A DNA stretch of 64,000 nt from Methanotrichaceae archaeon. Lineage in GTDB: Archaea; Halobacteriota; Methanosarcinia; Methanotrichales; Methanotrichaceae. Position numbers and translations under genes: made by a program. The notes under the pieces are model-generated. The model made no database searches. It was not told the origin of the DNA and saw only the letters and a list, made by a program, of their open reading frames with translations. Each line of letters starts with the position of its first letter. Position 1 is the stretch's first letter. The DNA lies in NCBI GenBank assembly GCA_963748825.1, contig CAVVKN010000023.1, positions 224,001 to 288,000 on the forward strand, in the 5' to 3' direction. Positions 16,154 through 44,800 of this stretch are shown here, piece by piece.

Positions 16154-16180
16154 ATCGAGTATCGAATTGGCAGATCTAAA

Positions 16181-17213: not shown

Positions 17214-17479
17214 TTTAATGCATCCGCTATAACATCTGCAATTTTGGTAAATTAACTTTATCCCGGAAATTTGAGATTATATAATCAGATCTGCTGGCCT
17301 GCGGATTGCAATAAATTCGGGAACTTGAGGACGTGGATTTAAGAGAGCTTGCCATCCGTCGCAGGTTGAGCAGAATGAACTATTCGCGAAGAGTTGCAGA
17401 AGCATCGACTGTAAAAGGCATATCAGAAATGCGGCTTGCCCCTCAAGAATCTCTCTAGATGTCTTATCGGATAAGAAAG

Positions 17480-17564
17480 CGCCGAGGGTGGGATTCGAAC
17501 CCACGATCTCCGGAGGAGAACAGGTTTAGCAAACCTGCGCCTTACCAGGCTAGGCAACCTCGAC
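17480..17564 (-). tRNA. tRNA-Ser(GCT)
   Basis: Anticodon arm CAGGT-TTGCTAA-ACCTG, long variable arm, GGTTCGAATCC T-arm, G discriminator. Confidence 0.95.
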
Positions 17565-17648
17565 TTACCTCAGGGACTTGACCTTTGGGCTATTTAAATT
17601 CTGCGTTTGCCGCCCCGGCAAAAGTATCGAATTCCTTTTCCAGCAGCA

Positions 17649-18029
17649 TCACGTTACGCACACCAGCAGGTCCTTGCTGGTGATTATCCCTACCAGTGCC
17701 CCTTCCGTCATCACCGGAAGCCTTCTGATGTTGTGCTCTCGCATCAGCCTCGCCGCCTCCCGGGTGGAGGCATCAAGGTCAATGGTGACAAGCGGCCCAG
17801 GCGTCATGATCTCCGCGACCGCCACCGCCGCCGGGTCCCGGCCCTCCGCAAATACCTTGAGGAAGATCTGGCTGGTGGTAACGATCCCTAAGCCCTCCTT
17901 GAGAAGGCCGTCCCTGGCCACCAGCACGCAACCCTTCTTCTCAGCCACCATCCTTTTTATGGCCTCCAACACCGTGGCCTCCGGGCTCACAGTTGCAATG
18001 GGATAGCTCATCAGATCTCGAACCTTCAT
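17649..18029 (-). CDS. CBS-domain pair protein
   Basis: MKVRDLMS..IATV; HNIRRLPV...LVGIIT..D. Confidence 0.9.
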   Translation of the reverse strand: MKVRDLMSYPIATVSPEATVLEAIKRMVAEKKGCVLVARDGLLKEGLGIVTTSQIFLKVFAEGRDPAAVAVAEIMTPGPLVTIDLDASTREAARLMREHNIRRLPVMTEGALVGIITSKDLLVCVT

Positions 18030-18196
18030 AGCCGCCACGATCCATTATAGACAGATCTTATAATTGCGATTATTAGCTGATAAATATGATCCATTTCCTG
18101 TGACGCTTTCTGAGAATAAAAATGAACCCATGTGCAAATGATTCCATTGCCCGGCCAAAAAAGGGCTCATCGAGGTATTGAGTGGGTAATAATAAA

Positions 18197-18391
18197 GTCC
18201 TCTGTGAGTCCTCCGTGCGCTCTGTGTCTCCGTGGTGGTGTTTCGTATTCGAAAACCATTTGGCTATAACCAGTGGCTAACAACGTTTCAACCACAGAGG
18301 CACAGAGTTCACAGAGTACGCACAGAGCGACTAACTAACAACTGGAAAACCATAGTAACCGAGGGTAGCCACGGGAAAATGGCGAAGAGCC
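18197..18391. repeat. REP/MITE-like palindromic repeat, copy C (most complete)
   Basis: CTCTGTG-rich left arm and CACAGAG-rich right arm; ends ATGGCGAAGAGCC. Confidence 0.8.
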
Positions 18392-18414
18392 AAAAAAAGG
18401 ACGGGAAGCACCTT

Positions 18415-20037
18415 TCAGAGCTCTCCCCATTGCAGCTCCAGCCCTACGGCCGGCTGCTCCAGCCCGAAGCTCTTCAAGACCTGTGGATGCAGCTCTCCGA
18501 AGCAGCCAATCTTCCGACCCCCGACCAGGATATCCCCGCCCCTGCCAGGCATAAGCGCTCCGTCCTGGGAAGGAGCGATCTCAGCCTTTATGGCCAGCTC
18601 CCGCAGCACGCCGTCGACCACCGACCGAATCTCCGAGAAATTCGCGCTGCTATGAATGGATGCCGCAGCCAAATGCATGCGGGTCTTCTTCTCCACCACC
18701 ACGTCCCCGGCGGCAAATATCCTCTGGGGCAGAGGATGGTGCTGGTTCATGGCGAAGATCTCCAGAAGGCTGGAGAGAAGCGAGGTGCGCAGGATTGTGT
18801 GCAGCTCGCTGATGGGGTGCAGCACGGCAACCGCGCCGGCGCCCTCAGGCGAGCGCCTCATCCACAGGAAATGCACCTTCTCATTGGTCAGGGTGAAGGG
18901 CATGGTCTCCAAATAACCGAGGCCTGCCATTACCTCGCGAATCTCCGCCTTACGAACCTCAGAAGGATGAGCCCGGCCTACAGTCACCGTCTGGGGAAGC
19001 TTGGCATCCAGCCGGTCAAAACCGTAGGCTTTGGCCGCGTCCTCGAAGATGTCCCAGGAGTGCATTATGTCCGCCCGGTAGGCTGGAACCAACACCCTCA
19101 CCTCGCTGCCATTCGCGATTGCACCAAAGCGCATCCTCTCCAGACACTCCGCCAGCTCCAGGGCCGTCAGATCAAAGCCTATGAGCCGGTTGGCCTCCTC
19201 TGCTCTCACCGTCCAGGCAGAAGGCTGCAGATTAGGAGAGACGAAATCGCCCTCGCTCCTCTTGACCAGAACGCTCTCTATCCTGCCGCCCCTCTCCGCC
19301 AGGGAGGTTACTACTATGTTCAGGGCTTTGTGCACCATGCCGTCCATTCCCGTGACGTCGATGAACAGATCCTCTGTCTCTTCCGTGACGCTGGTCAGCT
19401 CGCCATTGATGATGGGCGGGAAGGAAAGCACCTGATTTTTGGAATCCACGATGAGCGGATAGCGCGGGCAACCTTGCAGGATATGGCCGTAACCCTTGCC
19501 CTTGGGGTGCTTTTGCAGGATCTCCTGCATGCTCATCTCCTCAGCAAAGTCCAGGGGCACGAACTTTCGGGCCGGATCCTCCCCGAAGTAGCGGAAGGGC
19601 GGCGTGACGCGAGATAGGTCATGCACGCCGATGGCCACCTTGCGCCTGTTTCTGCCTAATCCCCAGTGCAGATCCTCTTGCAGGCCCATGAGCGACTCAA
19701 TGGCCTCGCTGGTGAACGATAGGCCCCGCACTACGGCGCAGCCGATGATGGGGCGCACCGATTTTACCGACTCCTCTACCTGCAGGACGATCGGCCCTTC
19801 CTCGATTGGATACTCCACCAGCCCCGTCTTGATGCCGAGGAATCCCTGCATGGCCCTGGCCACGCCCTCAGCACTGTAGAGATCGGGCCGATCCGGGAAG
19901 AACTCCACATCCACGTGCTCCTCCTCCGCCCTCTTTCCAATGTCTGCACCCATCATGGCCAGCCTGCTCATGATGGTATCGCGAGAGGCTCCAATCAGCC
20001 TCTCCATGTCCTCATAATAAAGTCTAACAACCGGCAT
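18415..20037 (-). CDS. pheT: Phenylalanyl-tRNA synthetase beta subunit
   Basis: MPVV start; PDRPDLYSAEGVARA and PAYRADIMHSWDIFED motifs. Confidence 0.95.
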   Translation of the reverse strand: MPVVRLYYEDMERLIGASRDTIMSRLAMMGADIGKRAEEEHVDVEFFPDRPDLYSAEGVARAMQGFLGIKTGLVEYPIEEGPIVLQVEESVKSVRPIIGCAVVRGLSFTSEAIESLMGLQEDLHWGLGRNRRKVAIGVHDLSRVTPPFRYFGEDPARKFVPLDFAEEMSMQEILQKHPKGKGYGHILQGCPRYPLIVDSKNQVLSFPPIINGELTSVTEETEDLFIDVTGMDGMVHKALNIVVTSLAERGGRIESVLVKRSEGDFVSPNLQPSAWTVRAEEANRLIGFDLTALELAECLERMRFGAIANGSEVRVLVPAYRADIMHSWDIFEDAAKAYGFDRLDAKLPQTVTVGRAHPSEVRKAEIREVMAGLGYLETMPFTLTNEKVHFLWMRRSPEGAGAVAVLHPISELHTILRTSLLSSLLEIFAMNQHHPLPQRIFAAGDVVVEKKTRMHLAAASIHSSANFSEIRSVVDGVLRELAIKAEIAPSQDGALMPGRGGDILVGGRKIGCFGELHPQVLKSFGLEQPAVGLELQWGEL

Positions 20038-20047
20038 GATCAATCCC

Positions 20048-21533
20048 TCAAAGCTTGATGGAAACAGGCGTTTCACGCAGCCACTGCACATCCGACTGAT
20101 AGAGCAGCCGCAGGTCCTTGAGCCCCAGTTTAAGCATGGCCACCCGTGAGACTCCCAGGCCCCAGGCCAGCACGGGATGCTCAATGCCGAAGGGCGCCGT
20201 GACCTCTTTTCGGAAGACTCCGGCACCACCCAGCTCCACCCATCCCAGTCCGTCTATGAAGACCTCCGGCTCGACAGAGGGCTCCGTGTAGGGGAAGTAG
20301 CCCGGCCGGAAGCGGACCTCCTCAAAGCCCATCTTGGCATAAAACTCCTTCAAGATGCCCAGAAGATGAGAGAAAGTCACGTCCCTGTCCATTACGATGC
20401 CTTCCAATTGCTCGAACTCCGGGGTGTGCGTGGCGTCTATGGCCTCACGACGGTAGACGCGATCTATGCCGAAGGCCTTGACCGGCGGCTCGGGGTGGTC
20501 GGCCAGATACTTGATAGTCACTCCCGTGGTGTGCGTGCGCAGCACCTCCTGGCGGGCCACCTCCGGCTTCCAGCATCCGCCCCAGCCTGTGCTCTCGGCT
20601 CCCCGGCCGCATTCATGCATCTCTTTGACGCGGGTAAAGTCGGGAATATCCGCCAGGCTGTCCAGATAGAAGGTGTCCTGCATCTCCCGAGCGGGATGGT
20701 CCTGAGGCTGGAAGAGCGCATCGAAGTTCCAGAAGCTGGACTGCACTATCTGGCCCTTGATCTCCACAAAGCCCATCTCCAGCATGATCTCCCGCATGAA
20801 ATCGATGAGCCTCTGGTAGGGGTGCTTCTTGCCGGGGAAGATCCGATCGGCTGCGAGGGTGACGTCGTAAGGACGGGCGCGATAGTACGAGCCCCTATAA
20901 TCCAAATATAAGACCCCGTCCTTTTCCATCCACTGGCCGGTCTTAATCATATCGGATGTAAGGGGCGGCATCTCCTGAGCCGCGGTCTCGTCCATTCCGC
21001 CAGACGCGCATTTTTCCCCTTCCTCTGTGATCTCATACCGCCACTCTTTGCTCTTGCTGGAAGCTAACCAGCCCCCGTCTCTTAAGATCGGCCAGGCCCT
21101 TTTTGTCCAGATCTGCGCTGCTCTTGGGTCCAGCCAGCAGTTTTTCCAGTATCTCCTCATCCAAGCCCCTCGGGGCAGAGCCCAGCGGCTTGATCTCGCC
21201 TGCCTGAATGGTCGCCCAGCCCTTCTTGCTCAGCCACCCAAGACCAATCTTATGGGCCGGATCCTTCAGCTCGGACATAGGCTTGCCTGAGCCCAGTGAC
21301 ATGAGCAGATTTCTCTCCGGAAGGCCCTCTTGGGCGTACTTTCTGCCTTCTTCTGTCAGTGAGAATGATCTCTTCTACTGATTTGTCACCTTGACGAGGC
21401 CCTGCTCGCCCAAAGCATCCGCTGAGGCTCGCACCGCCTCTACTTTCATCCCCAGCTTTTCGGCAATGCTCTGAGGATCTGAGTCTCCTTCAGATATCGC
21501 TTTCAGAACTTTGACATCATTTTCTGATAACAT
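20048..21533 (-). CDS. pheS: Phenylalanyl-tRNA synthetase alpha subunit, with an in-frame TAG at 21375-21377 and a frameshift near 21060
   Basis: [10 protein letters not shown] start; LTEEG..YA.EGLPER; [15 protein letters not shown] and YFPYTEPS motifs. Confidence 0.92.
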
Positions 21534-21780
21534 ATTATCATCCCATAGCCGAGCTGAATTCAGGGCAACGCTATTCTTGCCCTGCCGCCCTCCCATCAAA
21601 AGAAAGAAAAGACCAGGTGCCCGAAGATGCCTGAAGCTAGCCTCTTCGGCTTTAAAAGCCTGATTTGGTGATTGACAAATGAACATTTAGCAGTCTTTCC
21701 AGGCACGTTTTTTTCGGTTAGATTTATGATTTATAAACCTGTCGAATAACAGAAAAATAAAGAGGAAAAAGAGAATGTAG

Positions 21781-22497
21781 TCACTTCTTCCAGGCATCGC
21801 TCTCCAGCTCATCCAGGGCCCCCATGACACCATCCACTGCCATCTGGAAGAACTGCTTCCCTTTCTCCATCGAGGCTGGCTCTGGATTGCCCATGATGCC
21901 GTTTCCCATGAGGTGGCGCACATCCTTCATGATCAGGAACTGCGGTCTTTTCGGAAAGTGCTCTGCCGGCTTTCCCTTGACCAGGTCAGGACGAATGACC
22001 ATCATGAGCGAGGTCTCCATCTCCCCGGCATGCCCATCATGCGCTGTCTCAACGGCCTTGGTATCAATCAGATCGAATAAAGACACCAGGCTCACATGGA
22101 AATCACGCTCTTCCACGGCCATCTGACAGGCCTCCTCTAGAGCCGCCATGTGCTGCCCACCCGCATGGCCCGTCAGAATCATCACCCTGGCAAAGCCGCT
22201 ATCGGCAAATGATATCAGCAAATCCTTGGCGAAGGCACGCAGGGCATCATGCCCCACGGTGATGGTGCCGGGAAAGCCCCGCGTGCTTCGGCAGACTCCG
22301 TAATGCAGGGGCGGGGCCAGGAAGACGTGGCGCTCTTTTGCGACAGCGCGCGCCACCTCCATGGCCTGGATGGTATCCGTCATCGTGGGCAGATGCGGTC
22401 CGTGCTCCTCGGTTGCTCCCACAGGCAGGATCACAGTTTGCGTTTCCTTAAGTCCTGCAACGATCTGCGGCCAACTCATCTCTTCCAGGAGCTTCAT
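21781..22497 (-). CDS. Creatininase/ArfB-family amidohydrolase
   Basis: PVGATEEHGPHLP..TD, GHAGG and HAGEMETS motifs. Confidence 0.85.
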   Translation of the reverse strand: MKLLEEMSWPQIVAGLKETQTVILPVGATEEHGPHLPTMTDTIQAMEVARAVAKERHVFLAPPLHYGVCRSTRGFPGTITVGHDALRAFAKDLLISFADSGFARVMILTGHAGGQHMAALEEACQMAVEERDFHVSLVSLFDLIDTKAVETAHDGHAGEMETSLMMVIRPDLVKGKPAEHFPKRPQFLIMKDVRHLMGNGIMGNPEPASMEKGKQFFQMAVDGVMGALDELESDAWKK

Positions 22498-25286
22498 ATG
22501 GTGATAACAGCTCCGGAAAGGACGTACTCCTCTGGCACCTTCAACTCGTAGACTTTGTCACCCACAGACAACTGGTAAGCACTCATGGGCTTGGTATCGA
22601 AATTAGTGCCGCCAACAATGCTACCTTCTGTGGAGTAAGGGAGCACCAGGGTGAACCGGCCGTCTGCATCGCTGGTGTTGGACTGCTGGTAGACGAAAGC
22701 CCGGTTCTGATTGGTCATTACGGGAACTGCAGCTACAACTCTAGTTCCTGCCGGCGCATTTCCGCTTATCACCACGCCCGGCACGTGCTCGAAGACCTTG
22801 ACGAGCTTCTGACCGGCAGTTATAGTATTCTCGGACTCATGCACCAGCCGGTAATGCTGCAGAGCGTCGAGCGGGAAGGCAGAGCTAGCAGGGCTCATGG
22901 CTGCGATCTCGGCATTGTCCCCCTTATTTCGGCTCTCGTTGATGAACGCCTCCAGCTCGGAGCGATTGCGGGTGATCATGGGCGCCTCGGTAAGCACGGG
23001 AACCGTAACTCCATTTCCCGCATCCCTGGCACGATAGGCCAATCCTACACCCATATCTCCGGCAGTCTCGGTTCCGTCGAAGAAGTACATGCGAGCCGCC
23101 ATGGACTTGAAATAAGACTCGCGCCAGATCTGCACCGGCACCCAACTGTCTCCTTGCTGCTGGTAGACCCCAGCCATGTACTTGGAAGTGGGAATGTTGC
23201 TCCAGGCCGCCATGGCATGGAACTTGCCTACCGCCATGGGCTGATCGATCATCACGTACTTGGTGTTCATATATTGCGAACGGTTTAGATCAAGGTCTGC
23301 CAGCACCTTTTCCGCCTGGCTCTCATTCTCAGCTAAGAAGAAGGGTGAGGAACCGGGAACATTCTTGGTGACGCTGCCAATTCCCTGCTGGAAAGGATTG
23401 GCATTGGGAAGCCTATGGCCCACACATTCGATGAGGTGTCCGTAATCCCACCAGGACATAATACCGTAAGCTGTATCCGGATAGGCGTACTTGCCGCCGA
23501 CGGGCTGCACATATTTCTCATAAAGGTCCATACCGGGCTCTGGCGTATTGTTCTGCAGCCATGCCGTTGAGGTCAGCCAATCAGAATCCGGGCCGCCGGC
23601 GCTTTGAGCGTATACTATGCTCCAGCTAAGACTTGGCAAGATGATAAACGAAAATATCAAAATTGCCGCCAGGATGATCTTGAGATTTGAGGTGATCAGC
23701 TTGACCGGATCCTTGGCAACATCCAGGTCCAGATCCGTGATGCCGAACCTCTGAAGTAGCCAAGTTACCAAAAAGCCGGTGAGAATGGCTACGTTTATCG
23801 CGTAATAGTAGGTGAATCTGTTCTGGGCGAGAGCCATGATGAGGATCATCAAAGACCAGGTCAAGATCAATATTTCAGCGGGCTTTTGGAACTTGACATT
23901 TCTGGTGATGAGCAATATCAACGCTATCAGGGCTAATGTGAATGTGGTAAACAGGATAGCAAGGGTCTCGGGCAGGCGGAAGATAGCTGTAGGATCGGGA
24001 CTGTAGCCTATGCCCGGAAACGATGTGATGATACTGGCGAAAGAAAACTGTCCCCCGCTGGAGAACAATGCCGATGCCTCACCAACCGTTGCAGCGCCAC
24101 CTGTCTTCTGCTGAAATATACTTAAACCGGCCAGGAGCGGCCTGGTGAACTGAGGAAGGGCAAAGTAAAGTATGGTCGTGCCTAAGGCCGCCAATCCCGC
24201 CAATGCACCTGGATAGTAGTAGCTCTCGAATCCCTTTTCTCGGATGAACCTGGACAGGACAGAGAAGAAGATGACTGCAACCACGCCCAGGAGAAGTATG
24301 GTGGGCTGGAAGAGACTGTAGAGGTAATGGTTGAAGCCGTAGTATGAATCGACAAATGGGAGAACCAGCAGCGTGGCCACGATAAAAGTTATTGCACCGG
24401 AAAGCCCCAGGTATTCCACGTTCTTTCCCCGGATGTGGTCAAAGATGCTCTGCATCATGATGAAGAGCAGAATTATTCCCTCAAAGAGAAATCCGGATGA
24501 CCAGGCATCGATGTAAAGGCCGAGAGAAACGCCAGCCAGAGCAGAATAGAGGAGCGGCATCTTAAATGCGGACCAGTTCCTCTGCACCGACGCAAAGCTC
24601 ATGCTCTTTCCGGAGTGTAGGGAAAGGAGCAGGAACATCATGGTGAGACTGCTAAACAGTATCTCTGCCGCGTGGTGATCTGTAAAACCCAGGGTGGTGC
24701 GGCTTAAGACCTGGCCGGGAAGCACGGCTATGACCAGTGCCGAGACCAGGCCGCAGCTCTTGCCGTATAGCTCCCTTCCGATGAAGTAGACAGGGAAGAC
24801 CAGGAGTGCGCCAAGGACTGCGGGCAAGAAAGCGCCCACTACCTCAATCAGATGATTGCTGGGCTGGCCCAGGCCGAAGATGTAGGAGAATATGGTAATG
24901 GCCCAGCTCACAAAAGGACCGAAGTGCAGCGGCGTTCCGTGCGGGAAATAAGTCATGGGATCAAACCATAATCTCTGCAGGTTGATCACAGTGCCTTTGG
25001 CCAGCATCATATGATACCAGGCATCGGTCTCGCTGCTGAAGATTACGCTACTGCCCGAGAAGACTCGGTCCCAGGGAACAATGGCGCGCAGATAAAATGA
25101 GAAGAGTGCCGCCACTATCAATCCTGCATATAGATATAAATCGCTACTCTGCCAAATGCCCGCCTTGCGCACCGCATTGGCCTTCTTTCCCAGGGGGACG
25201 GACGAGGCCTCCCGCGGCTTTGCCTCTTTTGGCATCACCGGGGTTTTTTTGCCACTGTCACCCTTATCTACAGATCTCTTAGACAT
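22494..25286 (-). CDS. aglB: Oligosaccharyltransferase
   Basis: Multi-TM N-terminal half; DAWYH, DHHAAE, TVGE, SWWDYGH and NPFQ motifs. Confidence 0.95.
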   Translation of the reverse strand: MSKRSVDKGDSGKKTPVMPKEAKPREASSVPLGKKANAVRKAGIWQSSDLYLYAGLIVAALFSFYLRAIVPWDRVFSGSSVIFSSETDAWYHMMLAKGTVINLQRLWFDPMTYFPHGTPLHFGPFVSWAITIFSYIFGLGQPSNHLIEVVGAFLPAVLGALLVFPVYFIGRELYGKSCGLVSALVIAVLPGQVLSRTTLGFTDHHAAEILFSSLTMMFLLLSLHSGKSMSFASVQRNWSAFKMPLLYSALAGVSLGLYIDAWSSGFLFEGIILLFIMMQSIFDHIRGKNVEYLGLSGAITFIVATLLVLPFVDSYYGFNHYLYSLFQPTILLLGVVAVIFFSVLSRFIREKGFESYYYPGALAGLAALGTTILYFALPQFTRPLLAGLSIFQQKTGGAATVGEASALFSSGGQFSFASIITSFPGIGYSPDPTAIFRLPETLAILFTTFTLALIALILLITRNVKFQKPAEILILTWSLMILIMALAQNRFTYYYAINVAILTGFLVTWLLQRFGITDLDLDVAKDPVKLITSNLKIILAAILIFSFIILPSLSWSIVYAQSAGGPDSDWLTSTAWLQNNTPEPGMDLYEKYVQPVGGKYAYPDTAYGIMSWWDYGHLIECVGHRLPNANPFQQGIGSVTKNVPGSSPFFLAENESQAEKVLADLDLNRSQYMNTKYVMIDQPMAVGKFHAMAAWSNIPTSKYMAGVYQQQGDSWVPVQIWRESYFKSMAARMYFFDGTETAGDMGVGLAYRARDAGNGVTVPVLTEAPMITRNRSELEAFINESRNKGDNAEIAAMSPASSAFPLDALQHYRLVHESENTITAGQKLVKVFEHVPGVVISGNAPAGTRVVAAVPVMTNQNRAFVYQQSNTSDADGRFTLVLPYSTEGSIVGGTNFDTKPMSAYQLSVGDKVYELKVPEEYVLSGAVITI

Positions 25287-32928: not shown

Positions 32929-34041
32929 ATGGAAGAAGATTTGAGATACTTCGGAAGCAAAGTTGATGCACTGATAAAAGGCCAGAACCTCACCCGAGCG
33001 GAAGCAAATGATCTATTCAGCAGGATACTAAACAATGAGCAGCCTGACTTGCAGCAAGGTGCTTTCCTGGCGGCCATTACCGCCAAAGGTGCAACTCCTC
33101 AAGAGATTGCTGGCATCTGGGAAGCTATCTATGAATTAGATACCATAAAGGTCCACCCGGATGTGAGCGGTCCTTTAACGGAAAACTGTGGCACAGGCAT
33201 GGATTCCATCAAGACTTTCAATATCAGCACGGCCGCATCAATAGTAGCTGCATCTGACGGCATAATAATGGCTAAGCACGGAGCTAGGGCAATAACCTCC
33301 AGATGCGGAGCTGTCGACATCCTAGAAACGCTTGGATTGGACGTGGAGTGCGATGTCTCGCTGGTCAAGAGGAGCATAGAACAAGCTGGCATAGGCATTT
33401 TCAACGGCATGAGTGGCAAAGTGCATCCCCAGGCTCTCTACAGGATTTTATCTCAGATCAGATTCGGGACGGTCCTCAACATCGCAGGGTCTCTCGCCAA
33501 TCCGGCTCTACCTTCCTACGGCGTTCGTGGAGTCTACTCCAGAGAGATGGTTCTTCCCATAGCTCTGGCCATGAAGGAGATTGGCTACAAACGGGCTTTG
33601 GTGATGCACGGTCGGAGTGCTGACAGCTCCCGAGGGATGGATGAACTTTCCACTCTTGGTTCCTCTTATGTGGCGGAGATAGATGAGGATGGAGAGATCC
33701 ATGAGTACACAATCATCTTAGAGGGACTTGGTGTGAAGAAAGGAGATGAAGCATCTATCCTTTATCAATCAGATCGGACCGCGGAAGCAATAAGCCTTCT
33801 AAGAGTCCTCTCTGGAAAAGATAAAAGCCACAGGAGCGAGATAGTATGCCTTAATGCAGCACCTTTGCTTCATATCACCGGGCATGCTGAGAGCCTCAAA
33901 GATGGGGTGGACAAGGCTAGAGAGATCATAGATAGCGATAGACCCATAAGAAAGTTGAAAGCCTGGGTGAAGCAGCAGAACTCGGAACCCGGAGAGCGGC
34001 TTGAGAAACTAGATGAGATGCTTGCATTGGCCTTGTCCTGA
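32929..34041 (+). CDS. Anthranilate phosphoribosyltransferase-like (TrpD family, divergent)
   Basis: CGTGMD..KTFNISTAA, KHGAR, GMDE and LNAA motifs. Confidence 0.85.
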   Translation: MEEDLRYFGSKVDALIKGQNLTRAEANDLFSRILNNEQPDLQQGAFLAAITAKGATPQEIAGIWEAIYELDTIKVHPDVSGPLTENCGTGMDSIKTFNISTAASIVAASDGIIMAKHGARAITSRCGAVDILETLGLDVECDVSLVKRSIEQAGIGIFNGMSGKVHPQALYRILSQIRFGTVLNIAGSLANPALPSYGVRGVYSREMVLPIALAMKEIGYKRALVMHGRSADSSRGMDELSTLGSSYVAEIDEDGEIHEYTIILEGLGVKKGDEASILYQSDRTAEAISLLRVLSGKDKSHRSEIVCLNAAPLLHITGHAESLKDGVDKAREIIDSDRPIRKLKAWVKQQNSEPGERLEKLDEMLALALS

Positions 34042-34109
34042 GTTGTGTAACCTGTAGTCCCTTCCCTTCAATTTCGATGTGGCCTAACGATGTGGGTTCT
34101 GAAAATGAG

Positions 34110-34145
34110 ATTACTTGCGGGGGTCTCATCCCCCCGCACGTAATC
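34110..34145. repeat. Palindromic element, inverted partner of 31719-31748
   Basis: ATTACTTGCGGGGGTCTCATCCCCCCGCACGTAAT hairpin. Confidence 0.7.
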
Positions 34146-34451
34146 GTAGATACGGAATCCATACTTAGCGGGGCACGAAGAAGGTGCACGTATTCACAGG
34201 CGAGCGGGTGCAGGTGGACAAGCCCAAGGGCGCGCCGGCCTGGATGCCCGACAAGATCTGGAAGCCAATGGTTAAGAAGGTGGGCACAGAGACGCTGGAA
34301 GAGCTTTGAAGGCTCGCCTCGCTCGCTACAGGTCCCGGCATGGCCTCTGCCGCAGCAGATGTATCTTAGATACCGAGCCCCCCGTTGGTCCTCTCAGCGA
34401 AGCGTGAGTTTCTTTCAGTCTACCAGGGCCTTAGAAAGGAGGCTGCATCAG

Positions 34452-34672
34452 AGCCCCTCCCCCTCAGCAGTATCGTATCTTGAGTCCGTCGCCCCGGCGG
34501 CTTGTCCAAGGCTCGCCGATAAAAAGGACCGGCAGCCAGGCTGATTATGGTTGCGCCGCAGCAGCGGGAAGCCCCCGTAGGGCCGCAGCCTTAATCTGCC
34601 TGGCTGACGAGCAGAAGGCGAGCCTGGTGCCGCTGGGGACGGACCTGACGATACTGCTGAGGTCCTGGGGCT
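34452..34672 (+). other. ~220-nt rod-shaped imperfect hairpin (structured RNA or ssDNA element)
   Basis: Nested stems including a perfect 15 bp (34462-34476/34648-34662) and two 9-bp stems; G-T wobbles on the + strand. Confidence 0.8.
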
Positions 34673-34829
34673 AAAGCCGGTCTGGCTCGTGCTCCTGGCC
34701 CTTGGACATTCGATATCATTGAAAGGAAGGTCTATCAGCCCGTAAAGCTCGTAGACCAAACAGAAACATGGAGTGAACCCCTCCGAGTGGACAATGAGTT
34801 AAGCAACATCAACTCATGGAGGGAAGTAC

Positions 34830-35159
34830 ATGAAAAAGACGAGGCGGCGCTACGACCGAGCATTCAAGATATCAGTAGTAGCTGAACTTGAGAGTGGCAA
34901 ACCTCTCGCTCAGATCGCCCGCGAGCATAGCATCCATCCGGCCCTGCCATCTCGGTGGAGAGAAGAGCTGGCCGAGAATCCCGAAAAAGCATTTAGCGGC
35001 AATGGAAATCAGTATAAAGACCAGGCAAGGATTGCAGAACTTGAGAGGCTGCTAGGCCAAGCTCATGCCGAGATCGATCTTTTAAAAAAAGCCTTCGCCA
35101 TGACCCAAAAGAAGGTCCGGGAGGAGAGATTAAAACCGACACTGAGGGACGGTACATGA
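34830..35159 (+). CDS. IS3 transposase OrfA
   Basis: RRRYDRAFK HTH start, leucine zipper, A7G slippery site at 35084-35091 with the -1 frame open into orfB. Confidence 0.9.
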   Translation: MKKTRRRYDRAFKISVVAELESGKPLAQIAREHSIHPALPSRWREELAENPEKAFSGNGNQYKDQARIAELERLLGQAHAEIDLLKKAFAMTQKKVREERLKPTLRDGT

Positions 35160-36025
35160 CTATCCAGGATGCCCAATCAGGCGGCCTTCAGTTGCCAATA
35201 TCTCAATCCTGTCAATCACTCGAAGTGAGTCGCAGCGGCTACTACAAATGGCGGGTACAACCAAAAAGGGTTCCATATGTGAATATGGATCTGAAGAACC
35301 AGATTCAAGAGATCGCTCTGGAATTTACTGGCTATGGTTACAGGAGGATGACGGCAGAACTCCGATACAGGGGCTATGTCGTTAACCACAAACGCGTGCT
35401 GGACCTGATGCGACAGGATAACCTTCTGTGCCTGAAGAAGAGATTCAAGCCGATAACGACTGATTCCAGTCATGGACTTCCTGTATATCCAAACCTTCTG
35501 AAGAACATAAAGATAACCGGACTGAACCAGGCCTGGGTCTCAGATATCACATACGTCCAGTTGCTGCATGAGCACATCTATCTCGCGGTGATCCTGGATC
35601 TCTACAGCAGAAAATGCATCGGCTGGGAGCTGAGCAGAAACATTGACCACCGACTGGCTATGAATGCTCTGGCTAAGGCATTAGAAAATCGATGGCCAGA
35701 AGCTGCTCAAGGACTTGTTCATCATTCTGATCAGGGCGTTCAATACGCATCCAAATATTATGTAGATTGTCTTAAAAAGCACAACATCCTGGTTAGCATG
35801 TCTAGAAAAGGAAATCCATACGATAATGCGTTTGCAGAGAGCTTTATCAAAACCCTGAAGGTCGAGGAGGTATATCTGAATGAGTACGGAACGTTTGAAG
35901 AGGCTTATAGAAACATATGGCATTTTATCGAGAAAGTTTACAACAGGAAGAGGCTGCATTCTGCCCTTGGCTATAGATCTCCAGAACAGTTCGAAATGGG
36001 GGTTGCTTTAAGTACTGTTGCTTAA
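35156..36025 (+). CDS. IS3 transposase OrfB (DDE)
   Basis: YGYRR, WVSDITY, HHSDQGVQY, DNAFAESF and RLHSALGY motifs. Confidence 0.93.
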   Translation: MTIQDAQSGGLQLPISQSCQSLEVSRSGYYKWRVQPKRVPYVNMDLKNQIQEIALEFTGYGYRRMTAELRYRGYVVNHKRVLDLMRQDNLLCLKKRFKPITTDSSHGLPVYPNLLKNIKITGLNQAWVSDITYVQLLHEHIYLAVILDLYSRKCIGWELSRNIDHRLAMNALAKALENRWPEAAQGLVHHSDQGVQYASKYYVDCLKKHNILVSMSRKGNPYDNAFAESFIKTLKVEEVYLNEYGTFEEAYRNIWHFIEKVYNRKRLHSALGYRSPEQFEMGVALSTVA

Positions 36026-36051
36026 CTAACTGTCTACTATCAGGGGTTCTA

Positions 36052-36876
36052 AAGAGAGAACTAGAAGAAGAACGCTTGAAGATAGAGGAACCTGAAAGAT
36101 ACATTCAGATGAAACAGGAAGAGGAGCAATCAAAGAAAGAACAAAAAGAGAAACAAGAAGAGAATTTAAAAAGGATACGAGCAGAATATTTAAAGAAGAA
36201 ACAGGAAGAGGAGCGCTTAAAGAACGAACCGGAGCGCCTAAAAAGGGAACGAGAAGAATGGCGCTTAGAGATAGAACAAACAAAAGAGCGCCTAAAAAGG
36301 GAACGAGAAGAATGGCGCTTAAAGAAAGAACAAGAAGAAGAAGAAAAGCGCTTGAAGATAGAAGAACCTGAAAGATACTTCAAGATGAAACAGGTACTAG
36401 AAGAACGCTTGAAGATAGAAGAACCTGAAAGATACTTTAAGCCGAAACTGGAAGAGGAGCGCTTAAAGAGGATGCGAGAAGAATATTTAAAAAGGAAACA
36501 AGACGAGAATTCAAAGCGGGAACAGGAAGTAGAGCGCTTAAAAAGGATGCGAGAAGAATATTTAAAGTGGAAACAAGAAGAGAATTCAAAGCGGGAACAG
36601 GAAGTTGAGCGCTTAAAGAGGAATCAAGAAGAGTATTTAATGCGGCAACAAGAAGAGAATTTAAAGAAGAAACAGGAAGAAGAGCTAATAAAGGAACAAG
36701 AAGAGGAGCGCTTAAAAAAGGAACGAGAAGAAGAGCGCCTGAAGATAGAGGAACCTGAAAGATACTTCAAGATGAAACAGGAAGATGAGCGCTTAAAGAA
36801 TGAGCGAGTACGATGTGTCCCCTTTTATAACACGAAAGATGAAGACCAGATAATGGCGCTTTTTCGGGATGCTTAA
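36052..36876 (+). pseudogene. 5'-truncated Glu/Lys/Arg-rich repeat (coiled-coil) ORF
   Basis: Repeated EEERLKIEEPERYF and ERLKRMREEYL units; frame is open up to the IS3 right end. Confidence 0.65.
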
Positions 36877-37060
36877 ACCCAGGCATCGACATAGTTGGGA
36901 TCTAGCGTGAGAGTCTTGTCGAAGCACTTGATTGCTGAATCGTAAACCCTTTCATTAGAATAGGCAACGCCCTTATTGTGCAATCTTCTGCGGTCTGCTG
37001 ACATTGTGCTGATGTCATCACTACGAGCAGAAGGACGAAAGCGGCAGATATCAATCTCAT
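36873..37060 (-). pseudogene. Secreted TPR protein remnant
   Basis: Signal peptide ...SAQCQQTAED, then after a frameshift HNKGVAY...YDSAIKCFDKTLTLDPNYVDAW, one TPR before a stop. Confidence 0.7.
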
Positions 37061-37277
37061 GAGATCGAGGAAGTGCTTAAAGAAGATATGTTTGTCGGGT
37101 TCTGAATTTCCTTGATGCATCTGCTTCATCTCGCATCTATAATAGCCACTTGAAGCCTCTATACAGTTCACGTTCCCCGTTAAATTTTTATTTTTATCGC
37201 AATACCCCGATGCTTGCTGCGCGGGTACGCCGTCGTTTCACTTTGTGAGAAGTTTGAGTCTCAGCGAGCAAACCCCC

Positions 37278-40200
37278 CTATTTCCCCCAGGCCTTCTCCA
37301 CCAGCCCCCATCCCCTGTCCCTGGTGTAGCTCTGCAAGACCTCCTGCACCAGAACCATGAACTGCTCCTGAGTCAAGCTAAGCTGTGCTGCCAGCCTCTC
37401 CACCAGCGGCTCGACATTCTTCACATCATCGCTCTTGATGCTCCTCAAGACTATGGCAGCCAGCGCCATGAGCCGCAGACCTTCCTGCATCTTATCCTGC
37501 TGCACGGCCAGTGCTCCGAGCTGGAAGAAGGCTCCCGCCTCGCCGGGTCTATCGGCCAGCTCTTGATTGATCCGCAGGGCTTTCTGGAAGCTTTCTACCG
37601 CCGTCTCTTTCTCTCCTGCCTGGGAATGGATCATGCCGAGGCTGTGCCAAATTGCGGCCTCGCCGGCCCGGTCGCCCATCTCCTGAAAAAGCGGCAGAGC
37701 CCTGGCATACTCCGCTCCTGCCTGCGGGAAGTCGCCCTTCTCCAGATCGAGGCTGGCCAGGTTAAAGAGAGCAAAAGCAGCGCCCTTCCTGTCTCCGGCT
37801 TCCTCCAGCAGCCCCTGTGATCTCACGATTCTCTGGCGCGCACCGTCATAATCACACCTGCTCATATCCAGGCGGCCCATCTCCTGCAAAGCCGCAGCCT
37901 CGCCCTTCTTATCTCCCAGGATCAACATGATCTCTACAATCTTTTGCAGCTTCTCGGCAGCAGCCACATTCTCGCCTTTTATCATGTCAAGGGAGGCTAA
38001 GCTGCTCAGGCTGGCCGCCTCACCCGAGGGGTCGCAGGCGTTATGAAATGCATCAGCAGCCTTTTGCAGGCTAACTCTTGCCAGGTCGTACTTTTCCTGG
38101 TGCATGAGGGCCGTGCCCTGGCCGTGGTAGGCAGCAGCGTCCGGGGCGATTTGCAGTGCCCGACCGTACCACTCGGCTGCTTTTCTGTATTCGCCCTGAT
38201 CCAGATGGGCCTTTGCGATCCAGAGCAGCGGGTACTGACGATTGCTTGTCCAGATCCAGTAGTTCCTGATTAAGCCTTATCAGCTCATAGTAGTAGCCGC
38301 GTCTCTGCAGATAGCCGCTGATGCGGGCCGTCACATTGATGGCACTGCCTAGATCCTCCGCCGCCAGATAGTGACCGCGCGCTTCCAGCAAGACGTCCAA
38401 GCGGGAGAGCCCCAGCTCTGCAGAGCGCCCGGCCTCGGCCAGGTTTCTAAGAAATTGGCCGGCCGCCTTTTGCGCGGCGTGCTTATCCTCCGAACCTAGA
38501 GCCGCCAGAAGTGAGGCACGAATGGTTGAGGGCAGCGCCCACAGCGTTCCCGCGGCGTACGCTAACGAGAGAAACTGCCACGCGCGCCGCGTTGGCTTTT
38601 GCCTGATCTTGCGTCAGGCCCAAGACGGCTGCCAGGCCGTCTGGGCTCATGGCAATGTTGTAGACCGCAGCCTGAGAGAGGGCATGAGCGGAGGCAGAGT
38701 CCAGGCGAGAGATGAGCTTGGCCAACGGGTCTTCATTGGCAGCGAGATCTCCCAGGCCCAGGGCTTTACCTGTTTGGGCCAGGCGAGCCGGATGGCCCGA
38801 AGCGGCAGTTGTAGTGCGCGGCAAGAGCGGCATAGGTGATCTCGCCTTTTTTATAGCGATCCGCCAGGCCCCCGTCCCGGAGAAGATATCTAATGAATGA
38901 CGCCTGGCCCAGGCCCTCCAGCTTCCACTGCCAGGCGCGGGCCGGCAAGGTCAGAGCATCAGCAGGCATTGCCCTGCAGGTGATGATGGCGCGCCCGGCA
39001 GTCATGCCTTTTAGCATCTGCAAGTAGAACTCGGCCAGATCCGGGTCGGAAATCTTTGCCGGTCTTGCCGTCCAGGTCCAGGCCGTCCCAAACCATCAGA
39101 ATGCGAGAGGCTTTCAGCACTTCCAGCCAGCTCTTTAGCCGCTCCCTGACAGAGCGCAGCGGGTCTTTGAGGCTTTTTGCCGCGGCCTCTTCACCCATTT
39201 TGCTCAAATGGCCCACGGCTGCCTCCAGAAGCCGGGCGGAAGTTATGCGGTTATGCGGCGAGCTGTAAATGGGCAGAACGCTGTAGCCCGGCCCCAGCAG
39301 GCGGACGAGATGAGCAGCAAGCGCGCTCTTGCCGCTGCCGTCTGGGCCGGTGATGATCAGAGTCTGCACACCACCTTCTCGCAGGGCGGGAATGAGGCGC
39401 TGCAAATCCCGCCTCCGGTCCACAAAACACTCCGCCCGGCCTTCTGTCAGTCCCGGCAGGGCGAGCAGCTCCCGGCAGAGTGGGACCAGCGGCTCTGCAG
39501 CTCTCTTTTGGGAGTCGTAGATCTTCTGGCTGATCATAGATCGAGTACAACGCAGGAACTGAAACAGGTTCCTGAGCAAAAGCCGCAGAAATCTCCCGGC
39601 GCACGGTTAGAAGCGCTTCATCCATTGATTGGCCGGCGGCCAGGGCCCGGTACAGGGGCTTGGCGGCAGAGGCAGGCGCATTCCAGGCCACGGCCAGAGG
39701 AATGCTCTCCGCCAGGCTCTGGCAGAGCAGATGAAGAGCTGAAGGCTGCTCGCTCTGGCCGCTCAGGATTATGCCCGCAATGCCGGAGCCCTTCAGGGCA
39801 GCGGCCAGCATCCTCTGCGAATCGCAAATCGGCCCGGCCCGCCGTTCCCTGCATAGAAAATGCCGCCCTGCCTCCGGACACTTTTCCCTGGACGGACAGG
39901 TGCAGCAGATGGGGCCCGAAGGTCTCTACCTGTTCCAACAGCTCCTCCCAGGTGCCGTCCTCGCTGATGGCGAGAGTCATATCCAAACCCTCTGATACCT
40001 CCAGGATCGACTGCTCTTCCACTTCATAGTCCAGAGGCTCGGCAGCTAAAAAAAGTACCCGCAAAGGCCCCGGCGCCAGCGTGGTCGTGGAAGCAATCGG
40101 ACCGTCCGCGGTTCTGGGCAGGCGAATGATGCTGCACTCTTCACTGCCGCCCGGCTGACTGGAAAGAGGGAGCAGCTCCCAGGGAAGCTGCAGCACCTCC

Positions 40201-40506
40201 GGGATGGACGAGGCAACCGTCAGTCGTGCACCTGGCTGAACCATGGCACTGAAATCCTGCCAGCCAGCCTCCAGGAAAAGATGAAATAATCCGTCACGGA
40301 GGATGGGCAGATAGCTTTTGGCTGCCGCCTTGCCCGTGCCCTGCAAAAGAGAGAAGTACTGAGATGTCATCTCTTGAACCTGCTGAAGTCTGAACCGGCG
40401 TGAGGGTTCTCTCCGCTACGATATTGCCCTCGATTTGGATTTTATAGGCAAAGGTCCTGGCGGCGGCAGTTCCCGCCTCCCATACTGTGATTGTGATATT
40501 TTGCAT
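37278..40506 (-). CDS. CHAT-like domain + STAND P-loop NTPase + TPR protein, multiple frameshifts
   Basis: LPWELL/PLRVLF (CHAT); FVDRRRDL, GPDGSGKS and ILMVWDGLD (STAND); C-terminal GDRxGEA-type TPRs. Confidence 0.75.
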
Positions 40507-40543
40507 TTTTGTTTGTCCTCCTATTTTATTATTAAGATCATAT

Positions 40544-41437
40544 CTATTTCAAGGCGGTCCGGGCCTTCTTCTCGCAATAGTCCTTGGGCTCCAGATGCAC
40601 GACCACATCCCTGACCCCAGAGACCCTGCTCTTTATCATGCTCTCCACATCTTCGCCCACTTTATGAGCATCATCTATGGAAAGCGACGAATCCACACCA
40701 ATATGCAGATCCACATAGATCTCCGCTGCCATGCCGCGGGTGCGAACGCCGTGACAGGTGCAAACGCCCTTTACTGACTTCACCAGATCGACTATCAAGT
40801 TTTCTTCGACCAGAGCTTTATCCAGCAAGACCTTGGAGCTGTCTTTTACAATTTCCAGGCCAGTTAATAGGATCAGGCCGCAGATAAGCAGAGCTATGAC
40901 CGGATCGGCCAGAGGATAGCCCATATTGACGGCAAATAGTCCCAGAATGACGCCAAGGGATGCGAAAATGTCGCTTCGCGTATGCAGGGAATCTGCTACC
41001 AGGATGCTGCTCTTCAGCCTCTTGCCCAGGATATATTCGTAAGCCGAGACGCCGATATTTATGAGCAGGGTTATGCCCATAACCGCGAAAGACAGCTCGG
41101 TTATCTGGGGTAGGGAATGGCTATTCAGGCGATTTACGGCCGCCAGGACCAGTTGAATCGAGCTGGCAAATAGCAGCACGGCTATCCCCAGAGAGGCAAA
41201 TGTTTCAAACTTGGCATGGCCGTAGGGATATTCCTTGTTGGGAGGGCGGGCCGCCAGGGAGATGCCAACCATGCCGATGATGTTGGATAAGCCGTCGAAG
41301 AGAGAATGCAGGCCGTCTGCGCTCATGCTGAGCGAATTGGTGAGAAGGCCATAGCCCAACTTGGCCAATGCGGTGGCTATGTTAATTACGAATATTATTA
41401 TCAGGATGCGCCGAACCGTCTCATAATAGGCCATCAC
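40544..41437 (-). CDS. Cation diffusion facilitator transporter
   Basis: ADGLHSLFD, YPYGHAKFE, ADSLHTRSD and VVVHLEP motifs. Confidence 0.92.
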   Translation of the reverse strand: MMAYYETVRRILIIIFVINIATALAKLGYGLLTNSLSMSADGLHSLFDGLSNIIGMVGISLAARPPNKEYPYGHAKFETFASLGIAVLLFASSIQLVLAAVNRLNSHSLPQITELSFAVMGITLLINIGVSAYEYILGKRLKSSILVADSLHTRSDIFASLGVILGLFAVNMGYPLADPVIALLICGLILLTGLEIVKDSSKVLLDKALVEENLIVDLVKSVKGVCTCHGVRTRGMAAEIYVDLHIGVDSSLSIDDAHKVGEDVESMIKSRVSGVRDVVVHLEPKDYCEKKARTALK

Positions 41438-41495
41438 GATAGATATGCAGGGGAAGCGATAAATAATTATTTAGCCTGGCTGCAGAATCGCCTTC

Positions 41496-41780
41496 CTGAT
41501 CCTGAAGCGGGACAATTCTGATCTGATCGATTTTTGCCGGGAGAAGGGACTGATACTGCAGTTCATCGAGCTACTGGACCAGCGCCACCGGGGGCTTTCG
41601 GGCGACATCGACGCCATAGAGCGCCGCCTGGCCACGCGGGCGGAGCGCGTACGCACGCGGGAGATGCACCGGCGCAAGAAATACTTCCTGGATGGAGCAG
41701 AGGTTGAGGTGGTGCGGCCCATGGACAACACCGAAGTTTTGCGCCAACTGCACGCGCTTACATGTGAGCTCGGACGCCGG
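41496..41780 (+). pseudogene. moaA: Fragment of GTP 3',8-cyclase C-terminal region
   Basis: LQFIEL...MHRRKKYFLDGAEVEVVRPMDNTE, then FCANCTRL in another frame. Confidence 0.75.
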
Positions 41781-42084
41781 TTCGGCTCAATTATCCCGCT
41801 TTTTCAATCCTGGTGGCTCTCAACCGCCAACTACAAATATCTATAACGATTATATGAATAGTTTGCCGCTTCATGCCATTGAATAGGGTGGCGGGCGTGC
41901 CGTGGGCTTAACGTATCTGATGATGCTCTGATGACAAGGGTGTTTGCTTCACCATGAAGCAACATGCTGCCAGCTCCTAAAGGCTGGATGGGCTTGATCC
42001 CTTGGTACAGGAGATGCATGCCGTCGTGGCACTGCATTTGGCTACGGGCCTGTGAGGCTGATATTTCGGCGGGCTGAAAAAGTT

Positions 42085-42360
42085 GCGCGCTGTAACAGGC
42101 GCAGTAATCCGCCGGATCTCACGCTAATACACGGTCGGGGCATGAAGCGGCACAAGTCAGAAGTCGAAGGCGAGAGGGCGGGCACGAGGCCCCATGAGAA
42201 CGGGTTCCCGTAAAACGGACGCTGTGTGAGATTCCAGCGCTTGTGCCGCCTTCGAAGCCCGGTTTAAAGTCGAGCTTCGGGCAGGGTCAGGCCGTCACTT
42301 CGCGGTGATTGGCTCCTCCTAAAAGGACGCTGTGGATTGGCGCTGGCCCGCCTGGGACTT
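42085..42360 (+). ncRNA. Candidate structured non-coding tract
   Basis: GCGGCACAAG (42147-42156) pairs with CTTGTGCCGC (42240-42249); further hairpins follow; no credible ORF. Confidence 0.35.
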
Positions 42361-42822
42361 GATATCTCTTTCTCTTGATGATTTCTCTCTTGGGTGGAGA
42401 ATGGTCTTTTCTAACTTGAAGCGAAAGCCTTTTATCTCGGCAATTGACGTATAGTGTATTGGCGAAAGTCGATGGCTATTTTTCCCTCCTACATCCAATT
42501 GACTTTCTCCTCCCTCCTTCTTATCCATCTTTCATGAGATCCTACAGCATCCTGCCTCCGCTTTCTCAAAGAAAGACTTATAGCCTGACTCGTCCTTATT
42601 CTCTCCAGAACGCCAGCCATTAGGAGGAGAGAGGCAATAAGTCGGAGCTATGGGGCTTGAGGACTGGCCAGGCCCGCAGCTCCATTTATCTCATTCAGCA
42701 TAATCGATTTTATGGGCTCGCTACTTTTCTGATAGGAATGCACATTACACGCACCACGTTATACAATCATTCCAAACATTATTTATAAAACTAATAATTT
42801 AAATTTAGGAGCGACCGGATTT

Positions 42823-44467: not shown

Positions 44468-44800
44468 TCATACGCCTCCTTCACCAGGGGCCAGCGCCAC
44501 GGTGGCGTAGATCTCCGTCGTGGACAGCCTCTTTGTGCCCCCACCCGGCTTCTGGATCATGGGCACCGGCACGCCTGGCATGAGCGCATTCACCACATGG
44601 CTGTGGGGCGTGACCTTCCTCCTGGAGAGCTTCTGCCTGGGCGAGATCTCCTGGATCCCGACCTCTTCTGCCAGGCGGCCCATGGTCCGGAGCACCGTCT
44701 TGGTGCACAGGTGTCCCGAGCTCCGGTCAGGGAAGAGCCACACCTGGCCGGGCTGCAGGCTCTCCCTGATGACCTGCAGAGTGGTCTGGCTCACCCGGGC
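44468..44800 (-). pseudogene. Tyrosine recombinase remnant
   Basis: WLFP...KVTPHSH (HxxR partly deleted)...GVPVPMIQK...STTEIY. Confidence 0.75.

Follow-up and report, generated by a model that had tools for sequence, protein, structure and literature searches.

Cis-acting signals of archaeal viruses and plasmids are, to our knowledge, almost unknown beyond a few Sulfolobus and haloarchaeal models, and we know of no single-strand origin (sso) or single-strand initiation site (ssi) that has been defined in archaea. For Methanothrix, a globally important acetoclastic methanogen, we are likewise aware of few genetic tools. In IncQ plasmids, ssi elements occur as a pair, ssiA and ssiB, in opposite orientations, and the N-terminal domain of bacterial ArdC (PF08401) binds single-stranded DNA (ssDNA). 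We also know of no sigma factor in archaea that a promoter mimic of the 6S RNA type could target. The origin of the Sulfolobus plasmid pRN1, a Prim-Pol replicon, is a stem-loop of ~100 nt in which the integrity of the stem is needed rather than its sequence (PMC4234260). Bacterial sso elements are 168-340 nt long, structure-dependent, common to plasmids and integrative and conjugative elements (ICEs) and read by host enzymes (PMC4595007), and bacterial Frpo hairpins are located upstream of leading-region anti-defence genes (PMC11541004). Here we analysed a 221-nt imperfect palindrome, which we call the rod, in a 64,000-nt stretch of DNA (the window; contig CAVVKN010000023.1 of assembly GCA_963748825.1, positions 224,001 to 288,000, forward strand) from a Methanotrichaceae archaeon. 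The structure of the rod is conserved by selection across a family of copies, and we tentatively read it as a hairpin or cruciform in DNA that may serve as a cis-element for the start of replication, or for priming, of Methanotrichaceae mobile elements.

The rod is the core of a non-coding module of ~370 nt. Its extent, and the part of it that is most alike between copies, are as follows:

34452 to 34672, no strand assigned: the rod, whose internal loop is asymmetric and A-rich and whose apex is forked, recognised by fold z-scores and covariation
34533 to 34606, no strand assigned: the inner stems and forked apex, where sequence is best conserved across the family, with one GATY site per arm

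Folded as RNA and compared with dinucleotide shuffles, the plus strand of the rod reached -141.5 kcal/mol (z -10.13), a value that none of 200 shuffles equalled, and the minus strand reached -134.4 kcal/mol (z -8.55). Folded as DNA, the plus and minus strands gave -79.4 kcal/mol (z -10.07) and -72.7 kcal/mol (z -8.38), respectively, so that the comparison with shuffles proposed in a first-pass annotation of this stretch came out clearly for both nucleic acids and both strands (z -8.4 to -10.1). Every stem that this annotation had listed reappeared in the minimum-free-energy fold, namely the outer 6-bp stem (34452-57/34667-72), the perfect 15-bp stem (34462-76/34648-62) and the two middle stems, followed by the purine-rich internal loop, the two inner stems and the two apical mini-hairpins. 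Its observation that the arms differ in their loops, and that the rod is hence no plain inverted duplication, also holds. The window copy is intact and among the top-scoring members of the family (178.1 bits at 34473-34656 under covariance model R3, described below). A scan of the window at Rfam gathering thresholds returned two tRNAs only, and an E-value scan of 34000-35000 gave only chance-level matches, none of them to 6S; the proposed check for a known RNA thus left the rod without any Rfam match. A protein-coding frame through the apex, although open in several copies, was rejected because the apex lengths (20, 18, 14 and 13 nt) differ by non-multiples of three.

Pairing was assessed in two alignments, with slid partners and 500 shuffles as controls. 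The first, A2, was built with MAFFT from 67 distinct copies and carries a 45-pair structure; 89.6% of its cells pair, compared with 30.7-43.7% in the slid controls, and 21 of its pairs have changed on both sides, compared with 10-13, with none of the 500 shuffles reaching the observed values. RNAalifold consensus structures contained only 21-26 pairs (models R1 and R2), hence the use of a third model, R3, with 55 pairs, to which the copies were re-aligned (A4; 93 matches, 80 distinct rows). Since the 55 pairs of R3 were taken from the window's own fold, A4 leans toward the structure; in this alignment 84.5% of cells pair compared with 29.9-47.0% in slid controls, and 42 of the 55 pairs have changed on both sides (369 cells) compared with 17-24 (67-95 cells), again with no match among 500 shuffles. 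Arms were also compared by pairwise alignment, a joint MAFFT alignment of left and reverse-complemented right arms having been dropped because it misaligned the bulges. Across 400 pairs of distant copies, complementarity was 0.71 between the arms of one copy and 0.60 between arms of different copies, with a left-to-left value of 0.55, and the own-arm value exceeded the cross-copy value in 95% of comparisons. Compensatory changes, whose lack in homologs the first-pass annotation had named as the outcome that would sink its proposal, are therefore abundant in A2 and A4 alike, and the structure of the rod is under selection.

Sequence, as opposed to pairing, is conserved at the apex, where alignments A2 and A3 contain invariant and near-invariant columns; in A4, helix 6 is 91.4% paired and includes three pairs that never vary. 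Part of this conservation arises by construction, since many copies were retrieved with an apex pattern; the weakest BLAST matches in other genomes also cover the apex only. The asymmetric internal loop is fixed in position, with the pair 76/197 unpaired in 73 of the 79 rows that have letters there. The rod of a small circular plasmid, L228, combines the family apex with entirely different, well-paired stems.

The same alignments bear on whether the rod is RNA or DNA. Functional structured RNAs tolerate G.U far more than A.C, and the first-pass annotation had taken G-T wobbles as a sign of the plus strand. The arms of the window copy contradict this, with two G.T-type transition mismatches on the plus strand and two on the minus strand. 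When the left arm was compared with the reverse-complemented right arm in 67 copies, G.T-type mismatches numbered 168 on the plus strand and 169 on the minus strand. The A2 cells hold 107 GU and 86 AC combinations, and the A4 cells 160 and 119, the latter leaning to the plus strand in an alignment that itself favours the plus strand; in A4, G.U occurs in two or more rows at 22 pairs, and A.C does so at 18. This near symmetry fits a DNA palindrome, whereas few structured RNAs would be expected to show it.

The family comprises at least 79 distinct copies, every one of which came from a Methanotrichaceae genome, a provirus of such a genome or a related metagenome contig. Each full-length copy folds into a rod of 220-240 nt. 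In the genome of the window (G000), BLAST and model searches located copies or remnants on contigs C23, C9, C11, C6 (two places) and C22, with six covariance-model matches, one of which is the reverse strand of the window copy. These copies are only ~70-87% alike. Within the genus, BLAST detects the rod in 16 of 59 genomes and a covariance model in 22 of 59 (14 of the 30 high-quality genomes), and in a class-wide sample of 151 genomes matches occurred in 24 of the 74 from the same family and in none of the 76 from the other four families. A pattern scan of public collections, confirmed by BLAST, yielded copies L035, L037, L061, L086 and L094 in Methanothrix, Methanosaeta or Methanotrichaceae, as well as L116, L144 and L149; many other genome-contig matches of the loose pattern were discarded as chance matches in GC-rich bacteria. 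A stricter pattern returned 68 metagenome stretches, and 4 of 11 IMG/VR contigs were confirmed as rod copies. A distant blastn search with 34330-34720 found no match in annotated plasmid or phage collections. The family is absent from curated RNA families and from annotated plasmid and phage records, and a search at the level of titles and abstracts found no paper describing it.

Several copies are broken within the rod, by internal deletion (L019 and L022) or by truncation or rearrangement (L005, L016, L018 and L023). In L005, which is a second window-type rod in G000 (C9:228224-228353; also L002 and L234), only the right half remains and an IS21-like element cuts it mid-rod; the end of an IstB-like open reading frame (ORF) directly adjoins the break. 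In L016 and L018 the word ATAGATATCTG stands immediately ahead of the break points, which suggests the insertion of another element there.

On either side of the rod, the module comprises two further conserved parts:

34340 to 34451, plus strand: conserved 5' flank, in which the rod's left base recurs as a direct repeat, U (~34355-34383), along with the boxes TAGATMC, CCAGGGC and GAGGCTGC
34673 to 34710, plus strand: conserved 3' tail of the module, recognised in alignments; the short conserved motif TGGGGYYAAAGCCGG, which follows the rod, begins within its last stem

In most copies U precedes the left base by 98-122 nt and consists of AGCA-N4-CG followed by TAGATCC, and the right base of the rod is an inverted copy of the same repeat. 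The variable N4 co-varies at U, left base and right base according to subfamily (GTAT, TTAT, TTTG, TGTG, TTTT, TTGT, TATC or CATC). Repeats matched those of their own copy at 11.05 of 16 positions, compared with 9.41 for the motifs of unlike copies (n = 57), and U is degenerate in the window (10/16). Three repeats that co-vary at fixed spacing in this way may behave like iteron-like protein sites. The 5' flank between U and the rod contains conserved boxes and no convincing consensus fold. Origin boxes of the classic TTCCAGTGGAAA type are present in the cdc6-linked oriC of the host; the TTCCAGGGC box of the module was considered as a host origin box and rejected, as it comes without the dyad.

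We surveyed the neighbours of the rod at 80 rod-bearing loci, clustering their ORFs; a scan run in almost the same way counted 84 rods. The rod has a fixed place beside an ArdC operon, ParA or an integrase. At 25 rods the 5' side holds a divergent operon composed of a Zn-finger-like 179-282-aa protein with no Pfam match, sometimes a 99-aa protein, ArdC (PF08401 and PF18818) and a 132-169-aa protein. The main rod type lies 5' of this operon in fixed orientation, with 28 of 34 first-gene ORFs on the opposite strand, and the canonical rod is carried by the strand that serves the operon as template. The operon has its own TATA promoter ~350 nt from the rod, marked by tandem GCTAGC repeats and by TTTATATA ~60 nt ahead of the start codon, and for this reason the rod is neither the ArdC promoter nor its 5' untranslated region. 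Five to six tandem GCTAGC (or AAGGTT) repeats just before a TTTATATA-like box (L154 ~12400-12470, L162 ~4770-4830 and L236 ~12500-12530) look like an operator array. In seven loci (L035, L154, L162, L186, L191, L223 and L230), a second rod of another subtype lies inverted past the end of the ArdC operon, 2.4-3.0 kb away. ParA is the divergent 5' neighbour at 8 rods, which are of the window's subtype, and at 11 rods a tyrosine integrase gene, in the same direction, lies ~1.1 kb away on the 3' side. ArdC is not always present: some rods stand with ParA or by themselves, and G000 has no ArdC. A DUF3800 gene is found on the 3' side at 5 rods. In L021 (2261-2332), L016 (2016-2087) and L025 (1059-1130), the rod or its remnant is followed after ~400-550 nt by the Rfam motif DUF3800-X (75.5 bits), which is on the same strand as the rod and convergent with a DUF3800 gene; this motif was the only Rfam match in a scan of ten related loci (3 of 10).

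The carriers are mobile elements of more than one kind. The IMG/VR records G083 and G085 encode a terminase large subunit, a portal protein and a major head protein; G083 is classed as a provirus and ends at the host idsA gene, with its rod ~5 kb inside the element. The region G083 13657-22506 (L235 13657-19000 and L236 1-3506) encodes ORFs of 700, 337 and 1,914 aa followed by PD-(D/E)XK, cytosine-methyltransferase-like and Vsr-like ORFs, and may be a defence or anti-defence island; the 700- and 337-aa ORFs, the two submitted to Pfam, had no match. Another carrier is L228, a circle of 6,992 bp (127-nt terminal overlap) with genes for a 679-aa Prim-Pol (PF09250), a 91-aa winged helix-turn-helix-like protein and a 302-aa protein of no known family. 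Prim-Pol is its only recognisable replication gene, and Pfam and PHROGs searches of the three ORFs found no Rep, ParA or recombinase. About 2.7 kb of GC-rich non-coding DNA holds the rod and an inverted repeat with 35-nt arms (5774-5871); GC skew is uninformative in L228 because all genes are on one strand. Prim-Pol homologues are also present on L208 and L213 and were not found on G083-G085 (0 of 3 records).

Taken together, these observations are more in keeping with a cis-acting module that forms a hairpin or cruciform in DNA than with a structured RNA. Such a DNA module is favoured because pairing is selected without strand bias, because the rod is kept in a 7-kb Prim-Pol plasmid and because the family is restricted to mobile elements; action at the DNA level, and with it any role in replication or priming, is what we infer. 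The rod would act either by extrusion as a hairpin or cruciform or, in a single-stranded intermediate, by folding into a hairpin, and would mark the start of the element's replication or of complementary-strand priming. The forked apex and the A-rich internal loop could be recognised by one factor shared among all carriers and presumably supplied by the host, as is suggested by the conservation of the apex across carriers that share no replication genes. The base repeats (AGCA-N4-CG; a direct copy upstream, one in the left base and an inverted one in the right base) could instead be read by an element-specific protein, as is suggested by their lineage-specific and co-varying sequence. As one of its two readings, the first-pass annotation had proposed that the rod is a single-strand origin, or another signal in ssDNA, borne by a mobile element. 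The mobile link is borne out by proviruses with terminase, portal and head genes, by ArdC, integrase and ParA neighbours and by the circular Prim-Pol plasmid, and a DNA hairpin is quite possibly the right form of the idea; a rolling-circle Rep was not seen.

A number of observations weigh against a role of the DNA hairpin in replication or priming. In the two proviruses, Pfam revealed no replication initiator among 10 ORFs near the rod, and Prim-Pol was not found in the three provirus records. Since the DNA that head-tailed viruses inject is double-stranded, they have no evident need of a single-strand signal. Two different, inverted rods around the ArdC operon in seven loci are no classic origin layout, and in L228 the rod is ~2 kb from the Prim-Pol gene, with the smaller inverted repeat nearer. 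Recruitment of host Orc1/Cdc6 is unsupported because the module is without a TTCCAGTGGAAA-type dyad. The plus strand is more stable than the minus strand in 57 of 67 copies, by a mean of 6.3 kcal/mol, although this extra stability seems to come from the purine-rich loops rather than from wobble pairs. Lastly, there is a hint that the rod is transcribed. Metatranscriptome contigs from three studies cover it (X2, X3 and X5), including a 341-nt contig over 34433-34707 at depth 10.6 (X2 record 15), X3 records 22 and 23 and X5 record 29; such contigs report presence only, without strand, ends or level, DNA carry-over is possible and uncovered parts are uninformative. The stretch 33900-34069 had no cover in any of four RNA runs and is a poor control because it is not conserved in relatives, and the RNA-library shares of sampled words were small (0.03-0.09).

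These last two observations are shared by the reading of the module as a gene for a structured non-coding RNA (ncRNA) of mobile elements, with a regulatory, anti-defence or decoy function and the rod as its main domain, which we consider somewhat unlikely. Such an RNA would account for the contigs over the rod beside an uncovered 33900-34069 and for the more stable plus strand; its apex would be a conserved multi-helix tip of the kind seen in many RNAs, and a known motif, DUF3800-X, lies downstream on the same strand in L021, L016 and L025. It would, however, be an RNA in which G.U is not favoured over A.C by any of the three counts (168 vs 169, 107 vs 86 and 160 vs 119), with no Rfam family, no recognised conserved upstream promoter and a 5' flank lacking a consensus fold, and the contigs that speak for it carry the limits just given. 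The 6S-like RNA-polymerase decoy of the first-pass annotation is a small sub-case of this reading and is unsupported, given the lack of an Rfam match and of a G.U bias and the patchy, multi-copy, mobile distribution (22 of 59 genus genomes). A DNA site for another transaction, such as a ParA centromere, a resolution or recombination site resembling attC or the CTX attP, or the boundary of an ArdC cassette, strikes us as improbable. ParA and the tyrosine integrase are indeed neighbours at 8 and 11 rods, inverted rods bracket the ArdC operon in seven loci, the direct and inverted co-varying repeats resemble arm-type or centromere repeats, and many copies are broken exactly inside the rod (L005, L016, L018 and L023, with deletions in L019 and L022). 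Yet L228 has a rod with neither ParA nor a recombinase among its ORFs; the rod is not the attP of the G083 integrase, because it lies ~5 kb inside the provirus, away from the idsA junction; and the two flanking rods would be poor partners for inversion or excision because they belong to different subtypes. Sites of the attC type conserve the base and vary the tip, and the rod does the reverse.

An archaeal counterpart of Frpo or ssi, in which the hairpin in ssDNA provides a promoter or primer start for early expression of the ArdC operon, is very unlikely in our judgement. What recommends it is geometry, a hairpin 5' of the operon in fixed orientation and on its template strand, together with the PF08401 domain of the adjoining ArdC. 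The operon nevertheless has an ordinary TATA promoter 350 nt away, no conserved TATA- or BRE-like box was seen by eye in stem or loop across subfamilies in A2 and A3 (TTTTTAT is present on the complement in the window type only), the identified carriers are head-tailed proviruses and a Prim-Pol plasmid, for which no ssDNA stage is known and in which conjugation genes were not seen, though no search aimed at them was made, and rods occur without ArdC, as in G000. Least credible of all, to the point of being nearly dismissed, is a selfish palindromic repeat resembling a miniature inverted-repeat transposable element (MITE), or a decaying inverted duplication without function. Several copies or remnants per genome, as in G000, and the insertion sequences (ISs) and deletions that strike the rod would suit it. 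The first-pass annotation had itself named a MITE as a possible outcome, but it is the apex and not the termini that is conserved, copies are syntenic within element modules rather than scattered at random sites, those of one genome are only ~70-87% alike, the centre-less relatives L019 and L022 show internal deletions rather than clean empty sites, and compensatory change has kept the stems paired over deep divergence, unlike neutral decay. Within the preferred reading of a DNA hairpin or cruciform, we also considered that the rod recruits a host factor in unrelated elements (tailed viruses, ParA elements and Prim-Pol plasmids) and fires on one strand for replication priming or early ArdC expression; this bolder version is unlikely, but if true it would be the first archaeal single-strand initiation or promoter signal, an analogue of sso, ssi or Frpo.

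The surroundings of the module in the window are those of a rearranged remnant:

34167 to 34308, plus strand: remnant of an MC1 chromatin-protein gene, now a pseudogene reduced to its C-terminal part, bordering the module on the upstream side and recognised by translation and Pfam
34711 to 41815, no strand assigned: insertion of ~7.1 kb that splits a conserved non-coding block, lies outside the element and is missing in L167, L172 and L198
34768 to 36052, plus strand: insertion sequence, putatively of the IS3 family, nested in the 7.1-kb insertion and outside the element, with orfA at 34830-35159 and orfB at 35156-36025
41816 to 42726, plus strand: further part of the conserved non-coding block, which in relatives comes straight after the rod, with no ORF of at least 80 aa

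The MC1 match (PF05854, E 2.7e-12) covers only profile positions 58-96 of 96, and the remnant consists of the C-terminal 41 codons only. A syntenic MC1 copy in L019 (1025-1313) retains its full length, although a frameshift and an in-frame stop interrupt it, and an MC1-like stretch is also present on the virus record G085 (L162 360-502). Homology to uninterrupted relatives ends at 34710 and conserved sequence resumes only at 41816, the intervening 34711-41815 having been inserted, which places the window copy in a rearranged remnant. The resumed block of ~900 nt (41816-42726) is 75-92% conserved in L019, L022, L167, L172, L194 and L198, where it directly follows the rod; its RNA fold is modest (z -2.73) and it has no Rfam match. 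A DUF3800 remnant in 41817-42726 was considered and rejected, as tblastn returned nothing below E 2.7. The IS3 assignment is a reading of two overlapping ORFs. This IS is a recent insertion because it is missing from an otherwise 94%-identical metagenome contig, L201, which matches 34393-34767 and then resumes at 36053. Downstream of it, 36076-36876 encodes a 266-aa ORF that consists nearly throughout of EEERLK/KEQEE-type repeats, is also internally repetitive at the DNA level and is partly common to L201. On the minus strand, a short ORF at 44468-44794 resembles the C-terminal part of a tyrosine recombinase and is probably the integrase remnant of a decayed element.

The family provides a concrete candidate for the start of replication or priming in these elements and a possible building block for shuttle vectors. 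Should the rod instead prove to be transcribed and functional as RNA, it would represent a new large RNA class of archaeal mobile elements. It also carries a caution for similar searches, in that a long covarying rod need not be RNA; here covariation is strong, yet the wobble test argues for DNA.

Compared with the bacterial 6S RNA, the rod is similar in being ~200 nt long with an internal bubble and differs in that its bubble is small and asymmetric, it has no Rfam match and no wobble bias, and it is borne by mobile elements rather than present as a single housekeeping gene. With attC and the forked hairpin of the CTX attP it shares an imperfect hairpin with unpaired bases, a location by a tyrosine recombinase gene and the precedence of structure over sequence. 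The rod differs from these sites in its conserved tip and variable base and in lying intact inside integrated proviruses rather than at their ends. The conserved apex in place of conserved termini, the syntenic neighbourhoods and G000 copies that are ~70-87% alike rather than near-identical all separate it from MITEs. The resemblance to Frpo consists of a large imperfect hairpin with internal mismatch, on the template strand upstream of anti-defence genes; Frpo, however, has sigma-70 -35 and -10 boxes, which archaea do not use, whereas the ArdC operon has its own TATA promoter, and the carriers of the rod are proviruses and plasmids without shown ssDNA transfer.

The sso elements and the pRN1 origin offer further parallels. 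Like an sso, the rod is a non-coding element within the range of 150-350 nt whose structure is conserved over its sequence and which is exchanged between unrelated mobile elements, and the ssiA/ssiB pair of IncQ plasmids is echoed by the two inverted rods around the ArdC operon. An sso is strictly strand-specific, in contrast with the rod, which has no visible strand bias, and the three L228 ORFs submitted include no HUH Rep of the kind that would go with a rolling-circle sso; a relaxase was not seen either. With the pRN1 origin the rod shares an extended stem-loop in non-coding DNA in which pairing is kept over sequence, and Prim-Pol and rod occur together on L228, L208 and L213. It differs from that origin in length (220-240 nt vs ~100 nt), in its conserved forked apex and internal loop, in a distance of ~2 kb from the Prim-Pol gene in L228, where the pRN1 stem-loop is directly downstream, and in its additional presence in proviruses in which Prim-Pol was not found (0 of 3 records). 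Set beside these systems, the family is best filed as a putative hairpin-type cis signal of mobile elements, in a lineage for which none is known.

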